From NCBI RefSeq assembly GCF_041916035.1, contig NZ_JAYSAI010000001.1: a stretch of 64,000 bases of DNA. One strand, given 5' to 3'. Source of the DNA: Sphingorhabdus sp. (GTDB lineage: Bacteria > Pseudomonadota > Alphaproteobacteria > Sphingomonadales > Sphingomonadaceae). The translations under genes were made by a program, and so were the position numbers. This document shows positions 35,919 to 39,820 of this stretch, in pieces; positions within the stretch are counted from its first letter, which is position 1; each line of letters starts with the position of its first letter. The notes below the pieces were generated by a model that had not been told where the DNA came from, ran no database searches, and saw only the letters and a list, made by a program, of their open reading frames with translations.

Positions 35919-36338
35919 CTATGCGAACCGGCCTTGCAATTCGAGCAAGGCAATCGCCGCCTTGGCAGCCTCTCCGCCCTTGTCCTTCTGCGCCGGATCG
36001 GCGCGCACGAGCGCTTGCGTCTCATTCTCGACCGTCAATATGCCATTGCCGATTGCAACGCCGTCCATCGTCAGCGCCATGATACCGCGTGCGCTTTCGC
36101 CCGCGACGATTTCGAAATGATAGGTTTCGCCGCGGATCACGACGCCGATGGCGACAAAGCCATCATAGAGGTCGCTCTGGTCGGCGAGCGCGATGGCGCC
36201 GGGAATTTCGAGGGCGCCGGGGACGGTAATCACCTCGACTTCATGCCCCGCGGCTTTCAGCGCCGCACTTGCCCCTGCCACCAGCATGTCGTTCAGATGG
36301 TCGTAGAAGCGCGCTTCAACAATCAGGAATTTTGCCAT
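35919..36338 (-). CDS. ribH: 6,7-dimethyl-8-ribityllumazine synthase
   Basis: [31 protein letters not shown]. Confidence 0.95.
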
Positions 36339-36343
36339 TATTC

Positions 36344-37612
36344 TTACTCCGGAATCGCGCGTTCGCCGACAACATGGATGCCATAGCCTTCAAGACCGAC
36401 AACGGTGCGGTGTGAATTGGTCAGCAGCGTCATATCGTGCACACCCAGATCGGCAAGGATTTGCGCACCGATGCCATAAACACGCAATTCGCTGCCGCCG
36501 CCACTGGTCCCGCCTACCTCGTGCTGCAGGCTCTGCGGACCGCTGGGCATCAGGACGACGATAAGGCCTCGACCTTCCTTGCCGATTTCGGCCATGCAGC
36601 GCTGCAAGGTGCGCTTGCGCGGGCCGGAACGACCGAGCACGTCATCGAAAATCGAGATGGCATGCATCCGAACCAGTGTCGGTTCTTCTGGCAAGACCTT
36701 GCCCTTTTGCAGCACGACATTGGTCGTGCCGTCGATCTTGTTGCGATAGGTCATCGCACGCCAGTCCCCGCCATAATCGGACTGGAAGGCGCTCTCGCTC
36801 GCTTTTTCGACCAGATGGTCGTTGCGCATGCGATATTCGATCAGGTCGCGGATCGTGCCCATCTTGATCTTGTGCATCCGCGCAAAGGCAACCAGATCGT
36901 CCATCCGGGCCATCGTGCCATCGTCCTTCATGATCTCGCAGATCACGCCGGAGGGATTGAGCCCGGCCAGACGGCTGATGTCGACCGCCGCCTCGGTATG
37001 CCCGGCCCGCACCAGCACGCCGCCATCGCGCGCGGTCAATGGAAAGACATGGCCGGGGGAGACAATGTCGTTCGGCCCCTTGGAAGCATCGACGGCAACC
37101 GAAATGGTGCGCGCCCGGTCGGCGGCGCTGATCCCGGTCGTTACGCCTTCCTTCGCCTCGATCGAGACGGTGAAGGCGGTCTGCATGCTTTCCTGGTTCT
37201 CGCGCGTCATCGGTGCCAGACCGAGCTGGTCGCAGCGGCTGCGCGTCATCGCCAGGCAGATCAGCCCGCGGCCATGCGTCGCCATGAAGTTGATCGCATC
37301 GGGGGTCGCCATCTGCGCCGGGATGATCAGATCGCCCTCATTCTCGCGATCCTCGTCATCGACAAGGATGTACATGCGCCCGTTGCGCGCTTCCTCGATG
37401 ATCTCCTCGATCGGGACGAGCGCAGGCGTATCGTCATTGGCGAACAGATAGGTTTCCAGCTTGCGCAGCGTTTCTGCAGTCGGGTTCCAGTCCGGCGCAT
37501 CCAGATCGCGCAGCGTATTGGCATGCAGCCCGGCGGCACGGGCCAGCCCCGAACGCGACAGGCCACCTTCGGTCACCAGATGGCGGAGTTTTTCGATCAA
37601 TTGGGTCGACAT
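36344..37612 (-). CDS. ribB: N-terminal XRE/Cro-like HTH fused to DHBP synthase (RibB) and a degenerate GTP cyclohydrolase II-like domain (RibBX type)
   Basis: HTH: [20 protein letters not shown]...[11 protein letters not shown]. RibB: [34 protein letters not shown]-terminal domain LVRMH...[12 protein letters not shown] lacks the Zn-binding CxxGD..CDC cysteines. Confidence 0.92.
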
Positions 37613-37659
37613 TTCACATTCCCGTGAGAATCATGCCCGTAGAAGGGCTTGGTCCGGGC

Positions 37660-37688
37660 TTATTTTCACATCATGATGTGAATGTCAA
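37660..37688 (-). promoter_or_regulatory. ribB-ribH promoter: TTGACA -35 immediately followed by a perfect 18-bp palindrome TTCACATCATGATGTGAA (candidate operator)
   Basis: -35 at 37688-37683, palindrome at 37665-37682; extra TCACAT half-sites at 37614-37619 and 37699-37704. The -10 is ambiguous (AAATAA at 17 nt or TAAGCC at 20 nt). Confidence 0.75.
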
Positions 37689-37719
37689 AGCGCAATTATC
37701 ACATTGCACTATTCGTCTC

Positions 37720-38331
37720 TCAGGTCGCAATACCAACCGAAGCGCTGTCGATCACGGCGTCAATCACGGCGTCGTCGACCGAAACCTGCTTGTCGAGCAT
37801 CAACATTGCAAGCCCGTGCACGATCGACCAGGCCTTGAGCGCGGCAATGTGGCGCTGCCCGGGTGACGCGCCCGCCGGGGCAAGGCTGGCTATATTGTCG
37901 CGCAGCAATTGCAGCGCGCTATTATCCCGCCCTTGCGGCAAGTCGAGAAAGTTGGCCGCCTGCCGTGTTGTCATCATCATGCGGAACAGTGTCGGGTTGT
38001 CGAGCGCGAAATGGACATAGGCCCGGCCGACAGCGTCGAAGCCCGCCCTTCCGCCACCCGATTTCTGCATGGCCGCCAGTTGCAATCGCCCAAGTTCGCG
38101 CCCGCCTTCGTCGCACAGCGCACCCAACAGCGCCGCCTTGTCGGGGAAATGACGATAGACCGCAGTTGCGCTTACGCCCACCATGCGCGCAATTTCACGC
38201 AAACTCACTTCGTCGGCACTGCGCGTTTTCAATAGCTCCAGCCCCGCTTCGACCAACGCTGATCGCAGGCCACCATGGTGATAGCCACGCTTGTTGATAT
38301 CTATGTTGACACTGTTATCATTTACGCCCAT
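37720..38331 (-). CDS. TetR/AcrR family regulator
   Basis: YHHGGLRSALV, SLREIARMVGVSATAVYRHFPDK, WSIVHGLAML. Start placed at MGVNDNSVN. Confidence 0.92.
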   Translation of the reverse strand: MGVNDNSVNIDINKRGYHHGGLRSALVEAGLELLKTRSADEVSLREIARMVGVSATAVYRHFPDKAALLGALCDEGGRELGRLQLAAMQKSGGGRAGFDAVGRAYVHFALDNPTLFRMMMTTRQAANFLDLPQGRDNSALQLLRDNIASLAPAGASPGQRHIAALKAWSIVHGLAMLMLDKQVSVDDAVIDAVIDSASVGIAT

Positions 38332-38346
38332 GTTATCAATGTAAAC
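38305..38346. promoter_or_regulatory. Two imperfect palindromic TetR operators
   Basis: GTTGACA-C-TGTTATC (38305-38319) and GTTATCA-A-TGTAAAC (38332-38346), between the divergent tetR and oxygenase genes. Confidence 0.65.
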
Positions 38347-38383
38347 ATCGCCGAGTCGGATGGCAAGACATGGGAGAAGGAAT

Positions 38384-39820
38384 ATGGCCAGCGCAGTCGA
38401 AACCCTTATTCGCGGAGCCGTCACCAAAGGTGTGATGAAGGTTGCGGAATTCAACCGCGAACATCGCAAGGCACCGGCCATGCATCCCTATCTGTCCGGC
38501 ATCCACGCGCCGATGGATGCAGAACTCTCGCTGGACATGCTGCGCGTGACCGGTGATATCCCGACCGAACTTGACGGTCGCTACATCCGTATCGGCCCCA
38601 ATCCGATCAGCGCCAACCCGGCCGCCTATCACTGGTTCCTGGGTGACGGAATGGTCCACGGCGTGCGTTTGCAGGGCGGCAAGGCGCTCTGGTATCGCAA
38701 CCGGTGGATCCGTTCGAATGCGGTAAGCGCGGCGCTGGGCGAGCCGCCCGCACCCGGTGAGCGCGCCGACCGGTCCGACACCGTCAACACCAACGTCCTG
38801 GGGCATGCCGGACAAACATGGGCGGTTGTCGAGGCGGGCGGTTTTCCCGTCCGCATCGATGAAGAACTCAACACGATCGCGCACGATCCCTTTGGTGGAA
38901 CTTTGCATTACGCCTTTTCCGCGCATCCGCACCTTGATCCGGATAGCGGTGAAATGCACGCCATCTGCTACAAGGCAACCGTGCCTGACACGATCTGGCA
39001 TGTCGTTGTCGATTCCGCTGGCAAGGTTGTCAGGGAAGAAGCGGTAGCCGTGCAGCACGGCCCGATGATCCACGACTGCATGATCACCAAGAATTACGTG
39101 ATCATCCTCGACATGCCCTGCACCTTCTCGATGAAGGCGCTGATTTCGGGCCACCCCTTTCCCTATCGCTGGAACCCCGAGCACGCGGCGCGCGTCGGCC
39201 TGCTGCCGCGCAATGGCAGCGGGGCCGATGTCGTCTGGTGCGATGTCGAGCCTTGCTATGTCTTCCATCCGTGCAACGGCTTCGATACCGACGACGGCAA
39301 AGTCATTCTTGACGTTTGCGCACATGACCAGATGTTCCGTCCGGACGCCACAGGCCCCGATTCAACCCGGGTGCCGTTCGAACGCTGGACAATCGATCCG
39401 GCGGCCAGGCGGGTCGATCGCATGACGGTAGACGCGGAATCGCAGGAATTCCCGCGCCCCAACGAAGACCGCATCGGCAAATCCTATCGCTATGCCTATG
39501 CGATGGCGTTGCCCGACGGGTTCGACACCGCCTCACCTAACCAGTCCAAACTGTTCAAGCACGATCTGGAGGCCGGTGGAAAACAGGTGCACGACTTTGG
39601 CGCGGGTCATATCCCCGGCGAATTTGTTTTCGTGCCGCGAAAGGACGGCACCGCTGAGGATGCCGGTTGGCTAATGGGCTATGTCGTCAACATCGCCGAC
39701 GAAACGACTGATCTGGTAATCCTGGACGCGCAGGATTTCGAGGGGATTCCGGTCGCGACCGTGCATATCCCGCACCGCATCCCGCCCGGTTTCCACGGCA
39801 ATTGGGTGCCTGCCGCCTGA
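38384..39820 (+). CDS. Carotenoid cleavage oxygenase family dioxygenase (RPE65/lignostilbene/apocarotenoid family)
   Basis: HWFLGDGMVHG, NTNV, FSAHPH, MIHDC, YVFH, EFPR, EFVFVP, GFHGNW. Confidence 0.93.
   Translation: MASAVETLIRGAVTKGVMKVAEFNREHRKAPAMHPYLSGIHAPMDAELSLDMLRVTGDIPTELDGRYIRIGPNPISANPAAYHWFLGDGMVHGVRLQGGKALWYRNRWIRSNAVSAALGEPPAPGERADRSDTVNTNVLGHAGQTWAVVEAGGFPVRIDEELNTIAHDPFGGTLHYAFSAHPHLDPDSGEMHAICYKATVPDTIWHVVVDSAGKVVREEAVAVQHGPMIHDCMITKNYVIILDMPCTFSMKALISGHPFPYRWNPEHAARVGLLPRNGSGADVVWCDVEPCYVFHPCNGFDTDDGKVILDVCAHDQMFRPDATGPDSTRVPFERWTIDPAARRVDRMTVDAESQEFPRPNEDRIGKSYRYAYAMALPDGFDTASPNQSKLFKHDLEAGGKQVHDFGAGHIPGEFVFVPRKDGTAEDAGWLMGYVVNIADETTDLVILDAQDFEGIPVATVHIPHRIPPGFHGNWVPAA

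Follow-up and report, generated by a model that had tools for sequence, protein, structure and literature searches.

Bacterial riboflavin synthesis is generally taken to be controlled by flavin mononucleotide (FMN) riboswitches. One important question raised by the locus studied here is how the pathway is controlled in a genome in which no such element is found. The window, a 64,000-nucleotide stretch of contig NZ_JAYSAI010000001.1 of Sphingorhabdus sp. (assembly GCF_041916035.1), contains at positions 36344–37612 (minus strand) a gene for 3,4-dihydroxy-2-butanone 4-phosphate (DHBP) synthase, the vitamin B2 pathway enzyme that carries out the first committed step of the ribulose-5-phosphate branch, and this enzyme bears an N-terminal helix-turn-helix (HTH) domain of the Cro/XRE type. 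No Rfam match to the FMN riboswitch (RF00050) was obtained at the gathering threshold in the window, at E-values up to 10 in the region 37400–37900, or in the whole genome (G000; 2.6 Mb, 61% G+C, 99.3% complete), in agreement with the initial annotation, which had seen no FMN-riboswitch motif in the 107-bp intergenic region. That annotation had proposed that the HTH-RibB/pseudo-RibA protein autoregulates ribB-ribH through an operator in its own promoter, with no riboswitch, and this core is supported by the comparative tests described below. We consider it probable that a phage promoter-operator-cro cassette was captured and fused to the gene, here called ribBX, and that the enzyme represses its own operon, ribBX-ribH. 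The phage cro-type nature of the whole 5' module goes beyond what had been read before.

The open reading frame (ORF) encodes 422 amino acids, and its domains were assigned with Pfam and NCBIfam. Residues 69–260 (36833–37408, minus strand) form the DHBP synthase (RibB) domain, which is complete (PF00926 positions 1–191 of 191, 286.7 bits) and reaches 246 bits with the NCBIfam ribB model TIGR00506 (cut-off 177.45). It is the sole RibB-domain match in G000; since no second one was found in a 99.3%-complete genome, the fused protein must be the working DHBP synthase. Residues 270–417 (36362–36805, minus strand) constitute a domain resembling guanosine triphosphate (GTP) cyclohydrolase II, RibX (PF00925, 110.7 bits). 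In the alignment to RibA2 of Mycobacterium tuberculosis (4i14) and RibA of Escherichia coli (2bz0), HAISIFDD and SGPRK stand in the positions of HSECLTGD and RCDCG, which means that RibX lacks all three zinc cysteines, as had been claimed. The cysteine positions are replaced by Ser, Gly/Pro and Arg/Lys, and the catalytic segment is shortened by a deletion. A separate, full-scoring GTP cyclohydrolase II is encoded elsewhere (C18:29800–30288, a 384-aa frame with 213.7 bits for PF00925 versus 110.7 for RibX). With a complete RibB, a cysteine-less X domain and ribA elsewhere, the architecture deduced from the sequence is that of RibBX. The second gene of the operon, ribH (lumazine synthase; 35919–36338, minus strand; PF00885, 139.8 bits), lies 5 nt 3' of ribBX.

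The additional N-terminal domain of about 60 residues that had been assigned to the Cro/XRE type was analysed as residues 1–66 (37415–37612, minus strand), of which residues 1–64 lie outside the Pfam domains. Its assignment rests on invariant residues, profile matches in the PDB, a structural model, a fold search and free-standing relatives. Searched against the PDB, the profile of the HTH family retrieved XRE/Cro-C1-type chains exclusively, the best being 7t5u (the N-domain of CapH; E 9e-4), followed by DdrO, SinR and HipB. The AlphaFold (AF2) model of residues 1–66 has a mean predicted local distance difference test score (pLDDT) of 82, and in this model the domain is a compact all-helical fold with a helix 2-turn-helix 3 motif. 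Nearly all of the top 50 Foldseek matches of the model were XRE-type proteins (HipB, DdrO, C.AhdI, SinR, CapH), with template modelling (TM) scores of 0.55–0.65, root-mean-square deviations of 2.1–2.9 Å over 51–58 residues and probabilities of 0.97–1.0. The recognition helix was placed near GLHANTLRD, with the WNPT..TL.KLE helix next, and DSSP called no helix at residues 30–37 of the model. Ten residues are invariant over 26 genera (G28, L29, H30, N32, L34, R35, W42, N43, P44 and T48), and they fall in helices 2–4 throughout the family. A free-standing relative of the domain, P0290, exceeds the cut-off of the Pfam family HTH_26 (Cro/C1), with 23.3 bits against 22. No second protein of this HTH family was found in the genome, the next match having an E-value of 0.019.

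The intergenic region of 107 bp (37613–37719) separates ribBX from a co-directional TetR gene that ends at 37720. As had been noticed at the outset, TTGACA (37688–37683) is followed immediately by a perfect 18-bp palindrome (37682–37665). The former is the -35 hexamer (37683–37688, minus strand) and the latter, TTCACATCATGATGTGAA, hereafter operator O1 (37665–37682, both strands), has the core TCACAT-N4-ATGTGA and fills the spacer between the -35 and -10 elements. The candidate -10, AAATAA (37660–37665, minus strand), gives a 17-bp spacer; a TA follows the palindrome family-wide, and the hexamer as such is uncertain. The half-sites of the TCACAT type that had been reported to flank the palindrome were also located. 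One is a lone ATGTGA (37699–37704, minus strand), kept in the genus, in the family and in phage cro promoters; from start to start, it stands 33 bp, or about three helical turns, 5' of the ATGTGA half of O1. The other belongs to a weak extra site, TCTCAC-GGGA-ATGTGA (37614–37629, minus strand), which abuts the ATG and is centred 52 bp from O1; it scores 13.5 bits with the position weight matrix (PWM) described below, the 11th best score in the genome, and is not kept in other long-leader orthologues, being lineage-specific. The whole genome contains 33 perfect 18-bp palindromes, and the hexamer TCACAT/ATGTGA occurs 709 times in its 2.6 Mb; at that frequency 107 bp should contain 0.029 copies, against four observed (Poisson P ~3e-8). 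Long-leader loci follow one basic plan but differ in how many half-sites they have and where; in several genera with a longer leader (L077, L081, L086, L039) an extra ATCACA(T) half-site stands 15 nt 3' of the full palindrome. In the window, the start-codon region ATGTGAAATGTCGA (37606–37619) repeats, inverted and imperfectly, the segment TTTGACATTCACAT (37676–37689) that comprises the -35 and the left half-site; the two could pair if the spacer were transcribed from upstream, a lineage-specific and unexplained feature.

A comparison of genes with and without the HTH showed that the site travels with the domain. Upstream regions of 92 HTH-bearing loci, of which 23 belong to the genus and 69 to other genera, and of 16 HTH-less orthologues (seven from other families and nine from Sphingomonadaceae) were inspected. 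The strict pattern TCACAY-N4-RTGTGA was present at 75 of the 92 HTH-bearing loci and at none of the 16 HTH-less ones, and the loose pattern CAC-N8-GTG at 89 of 92 versus one of 16, the latter inside the ribE coding sequence; the other three HTH-bearing loci carry degenerate but recognisable versions. The co-occurrence check suggested by the initial annotation thus came out in its favour. To look for further targets, a 22-nt PWM built from the 23 genus sites was scanned over the genome. The ribBX operator scored 34.3 bits versus 22.2 for the next-best site, which has degenerate half-sites. There is no second exact copy of the operator in the genome, and its 16-mer recurs with one mismatch at only two other positions. 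The weaker PWM sites in the genome scan are degenerate, each with at least one half-site damaged, and the ORFs around them did not suggest a gene under such control; no site was found near ribA or ribE. With a single high-scoring site and none at ribA or ribE, the regulon appears to be ribBX-ribH alone, and the genome-wide scan for a regulon that had been suggested yielded no second member.

It might be asked whether another regulator (TetR, a prophage or other CI-like repressor, or a global factor) binds the palindrome, the fused HTH having another role or none. Phage CI and Cro normally share operators, so a CI-type protein of this specificity can exist, and the genome does encode a CI-like S24 protein on contig C8. 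We nevertheless regard this explanation as very unlikely, because the fused HTH is the only DNA-binding domain that accompanies the site over the 92 loci and no further copy of the site exists in the genome. The gene located 5' of the operator differs between genomes, being ribE in many genera and elsewhere a tRNA, a divergent gene or TetR, while the site stays, which excludes TetR as the cognate factor; TetR adjoins the site in few genomes and is divergently paired with an RPE65-type oxygenase gene. TetR was rejected as the binder on this lack of conserved synteny, as had been anticipated. The accompanying claim that TetR has different operators of its own was not borne out, a search of 38230–38420 having yielded no inverted repeat with a length of at least 10 bp. 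The CI-like protein of contig C8 was rejected as well, since its operator differs: its Peptidase_S24 gene (G000:C8:36644–40000, L212) is preceded by two copies of TAGGAAAAATCCTA, and the C8 locus has no CAC-N8-GTG palindrome.

If the fused HTH is the binder, the position of the site indicates in which sense it acts. The 89 sites were aligned on the palindrome. Positions -7 to -2 before the core read T (59), T (70), G (48), A/G, C (47) and A (41 of 89), that is, TTGACA, with one base between this hexamer and the 16-bp core, and after the core a TA is frequent (T in 53 and A in 69 of 89). The ATG lies 11–14 nt past the core in 60 loci, 12 or 13 nt being commonest. With 12 nt after the core, the distance from the end of the -35 to the A of the ATG is 29 nt, equal to a 17-bp spacer, a 6-nt -10 and 6 nt more, which is the canonical spacing when the mRNA is leaderless and the operator occupies the spacer. 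Reading the segment as an extended -10 (TGTGATA) gives a nearly identical start point, and both readings place the operator on the predicted core promoter elements. The window locus, like roughly half of those in its genus, has gained a leader (42–59 nt), whose sequence is not conserved. The initial annotation had raised MerR-like activation in case the -10 is TAAGCC with a 20-bp spacer, an option that is disfavoured by the family-wide 17-bp spacing and the leaderless layout. Activation by the HTH, either by distorting the spacer as MerR does or in the class II manner, can draw on this alternative hexamer in the window and on a -10 that is poorly defined across the family. We give it a very low probability, because the -35 is near consensus (TTGACA) with a family spacing that fits 17 bp, the site fills the whole spacer as a repressor site does, the phage relatives stand where Cro represses its own promoter, and the HTH is XRE-type and unrelated to MerR. 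An operator within the 17-bp spacer argues for repression.

Where the domain and its site may have come from was examined by an exhaustive HMMER search with residues 1–66. Many free-standing proteins of 60–90 aa were retrieved, with 43–55% identity over the whole domain. Five of them could be placed beside phage genes (P0278, P0290, P0404, P0283, P0389), and all five are divergent from a Peptidase_S24 (CI-like) gene and precede phage early genes such as DnaB, SSB, NinB and HNH. By gene order, these relatives occupy the cro position of a lambdoid immunity region. At locus L218, from another alphaproteobacterial family, the relative is flanked on one side by a CI-like gene with HTH_26 and Peptidase_S24 domains and on the other by a CII-like gene of the Phage_CP76 type. 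Relatives in such settings, divergent from CI-like genes and followed by replication or CII genes, show 41–48% identity. The promoters of the relatives contain a lone ATGTGA-type half-site, a TTGcaa-type -35, an xCACAT-N4-ATGTGx palindrome, about 13 nt and the ATG, in the same order and with the same spacing as ribBX. One reads GATGTGA, N8, TTGCAA, A, GCACAT-CGCG-ATGTGC, 13 nt, ATG, and a second GGATGTGA, TTGCAA, A, CCACAT-TTGG-ATGTGG, 13 nt, ATG; the site of L204 is more degenerate. At L218 the recognition helix is GLPDTTLRG (versus GLHANTLRD), and both the palindrome and the lone half-site are changed to CGCAT/ATGCG. Among isolated phage genomes, the prophage relative P0389 had no match; the one match of the window HTH (41%), to a strand of Pseudanabaena phage Pan3 without annotation, is uninformative. 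The presumed phage module stands between ribE and ribBX in many genera. The simplest history would be that a prophage early promoter, with its operators and cro, was left before ribBX and became fused to it in frame.

The co-variation at L218 argues for recognition by protein, since the lone half-site has no RNA pairing partner. It bears on a different explanation, in which the palindrome acts as RNA (a ribE terminator hairpin or a 5' stem) or as promoter architecture and the HTH is a vestigial phage remnant. The palindrome can form a 7-bp hairpin of -5.7 kcal/mol, the intergenic region as a whole folds well (-36.8 kcal/mol over 120 nt, z-score -3.69), and ribE lies directly upstream in many genera. 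The hairpin itself is, however, weak (z -1.58) and is not followed by a T-run; it is the sequence that is conserved, not the pairing, and this extends to the unpaired lone half-site, which co-varies at L218. In most relatives, moreover, the palindrome lies upstream of the predicted transcription start, and the invariant residues in helices 2–4 are kept family-wide. An RNA role with a vestigial HTH is thus highly improbable, and recognition of the palindrome by the fused HTH is retained as the preferred explanation.

The distribution of the fusion was established next to that of the riboswitch. An FMN riboswitch was found in one of 151 Sphingomonadaceae genomes (locus L104, G166:C21:12231–14199, 112.7 bits); as this assembly is 80% complete with 2% contamination, the element may be a true exception or may have come in on a foreign contig. 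With no FMN riboswitch in the genome or in 150 of the 151 family genomes, the operator is the only rib-specific control element visible. The N-terminal extension is present in all 24 sampled genomes of the genus, and in 16 genomes from nine other families of the order the match starts at residue 50 or later, mostly at about 60. Within Sphingomonadaceae the HTH domain was detected in 154 of 200 sampled genomes and in 88 of 112 genera, the HTH-bearing copies being nearly always open frames of about 420–450 aa. Species-representative genomes contain at least 593 confirmed stretches with the domain, and the protein database 2604 clusters; every named entry among the 120 of these clusters that were listed is called plain DHBP synthase or RibBA. 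In 400 genomes spread evenly over Alphaproteobacteria, the domain was found outside Sphingomonadaceae twice, both times as a small free-standing ORF. Judging by these genomes, the HTH-RibBX fusion is a trait of Sphingomonadaceae. In a tree of 86 HTH sequences all 75 fused copies fall beyond a single branch (SH-like approximate likelihood ratio test, SH-aLRT, 83), which is compatible with a single origin of the fusion without proving it.

Several loci depart from the common arrangement. In G018, a genome of the genus, HTH-ribBX (L021, C134:34933–39216) has an in-frame TGA at codon 42, which may reflect decay of the fused copy beside a plain one or a sequencing error; a second, HTH-less ribBX, 59% identical, is located at C138:3275–4357, and G010 also has both types of copy. 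The 3.0-Mb contig CP022707.1, which bears the label Novosphingobium sp. 9, has at L223:2501–3807 an HTH annotated as a protein of its own (116 aa) whose frame overlaps that of a 356-aa RibBX; there the fusion is either naturally split or broken by a frameshift. P0398 (L205:3001–3258, present on 19 contigs) is an orphan HTH of 85 aa, 65% identical to the window domain; its FtsW/LuxR neighbourhood is like that of the HTH-ribBX locus L221, with no ribBX behind it and no palindrome ahead. Several other seemingly free-standing HTH matches were rejected as contig-end fragments or frameshift-split HTH-ribBX loci.

DHBP synthases dimerise through the RibB domain. Binding of the site by the HTH, repression as its outcome and dimerisation of this protein are inferred, and on these premises the mechanism would be as follows. 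A RibB-domain dimer would present two Cro-type HTH heads to half-sites whose centres are 10 bp apart, and the heads would bind TCACAT-N4-ATGTGA in the -35/-10 spacer of their own promoter; some help may come from the conserved lone half-site, which lies three helical turns further upstream. With the heads bound, RNA polymerase would be shut out of the promoter, and the level of the enzyme would thereby set transcription of ribBX-ribH (negative autoregulation). DNA binding may in turn be tuned by a metabolite that occupies the RibB or RibX domain (flavin, GTP or ribulose-5-phosphate had been suggested at the outset), a proposal that we consider evenly balanced. Several observations weigh against the whole scheme. 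The window HTH scores below the Pfam cut-offs (HTH_31, 19.6 bits against 27; HTH_3, 17.4 against 23; E-values 1e-3 and 5e-3), and no Foldseek match of its model has an E-value below 0.13, a weakness common for domains of 60 residues. The full-length AlphaFold model, built with 48 close orthologues, is poor (pLDDT 66, below 50 in the RibB core), which makes the placement of the HTH on the RibB dimer and the dimer geometry unreadable. Related genomes are not independent samples, and for this reason the co-occurrence counts are given without a P-value. The exact -10 hexamer is ambiguous, and the ATG of the window gene lies 53 nt past the palindrome, so that the leaderless argument fits the relatives and not this gene. 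Finally, the HTH-less genera of Sphingomonadaceae equally lack a riboswitch, and the fusion is hence not a simple one-for-one replacement of it.

The shared operator core, CACAT-N4-ATGTG, opens a further possibility. If host HTH and the Cro/CI of temperate sphingomonad phages read the same core, they may cross-talk: the CI or Cro of a resident or incoming phage might switch host riboflavin synthesis, or the abundant HTH-RibBX might act on phage early operators as a built-in immunity or interference factor. We think this unlikely; were it true, the fusion would be kept for phage-host conflict besides vitamin homeostasis.

As regards the neighbouring genes, a convergent LigT-like gene 3' of ribH closes the operon on the gene map. 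On the other side, the longest ORF of TetR (37720–38481, minus strand) overlaps the start of the divergent RPE65-type (carotenoid oxygenase family) gene at 38360–39820 (plus strand). The TetR_N domain starts only at residue 76 of this ORF, and the true start is probably further downstream; TetR and the RPE65-type gene look like a local regulator with its target gene.

Most Sphingomonadaceae thus carry a DNA-binding head on DHBP synthase, in a family with almost no FMN riboswitch. The system would be compact, consisting of one protein, one 18-bp site and one operon, and is of practical relevance for engineering riboflavin output in sphingomonads, as well as for understanding the origin of trigger enzymes. 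It also matters for annotation, since the names given in the listed database entries are simply DHBP synthase or RibBA. Neither full-text literature searches nor a word search of recent reviews on riboflavin regulation turned up an account of an HTH-RibB fusion. If confirmed, it would be a bacterial counterpart of the archaeal RbkR and a clear case of a whole phage regulatory cassette (promoter, operators and cro) reused for a self-regulating metabolic enzyme.

Like the lambdoid Cro/PR-OR arrangement, the locus has a small Cro/C1-type HTH encoded directly after a promoter with a palindromic operator in its core, and in the closest free-standing relatives the layout is lambda-like, with a divergent S24 CI-like gene and, in one case, a CII-like gene after it. 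In contrast to the lambdoid phages, no cI partner is present here, and the HTH is a domain of an enzyme instead of a free protein of 60–90 aa; the comparison with lambda Cro rests on domain type and on gene and promoter layout. As an enzyme, the protein resembles RibBX, described as a functional RibB joined to a GTP-cyclohydrolase-II-like X domain without the zinc residues (Brutinel, Dean and Gralnick 2013, PMC3889622, as reported in PMC10012899). The window protein shares with it the RibB and the cysteine-less X domain, with a separate ribA elsewhere, and differs in its N-terminal DNA-binding domain, which the described RibBX proteins lack. The HTH-less RibBX genes of neighbouring families stand directly after ribE and have no operator.

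With both domains in one polypeptide and a conserved operator at its own promoter, HTH-RibBX has the architecture of an enzyme-fused regulator, and it belongs with the enzyme-fused repressors, autorepression being predicted. BirA, NadR and PutA are bacterial enzyme-repressors (listed in PMC5397151). HTH-RibBX is like them in being a catalytic protein with a fused DNA-binding domain that represses (here, is predicted to repress) its own pathway; they differ in their enzyme families and DNA-binding folds and have known effectors, and none acts on riboflavin synthesis. For that pathway the parallel is RbkR of Archaea, a MarR-type winged HTH joined to a riboflavin kinase dependent on cytidine triphosphate (CTP), which governs a regulon of several operons and whose control by CTP and FMN is proven (Rodionova et al. 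2017, PMC5397151). Both are riboflavin enzymes with an N-terminal DNA-binding domain and with operators at rib genes and at their own gene, both occur in lineages without FMN riboswitches, and in most genomes neither enzyme has a second, unfused copy. The system described here differs in combining a Cro/XRE-type HTH with DHBP synthase, in belonging to Bacteria and in having one target operon, and neither domain is homologous to its counterpart. Being built of an XRE-type HTH, PF00926 and PF00925, HTH-RibBX is an analogue of RbkR and not a member of its family.

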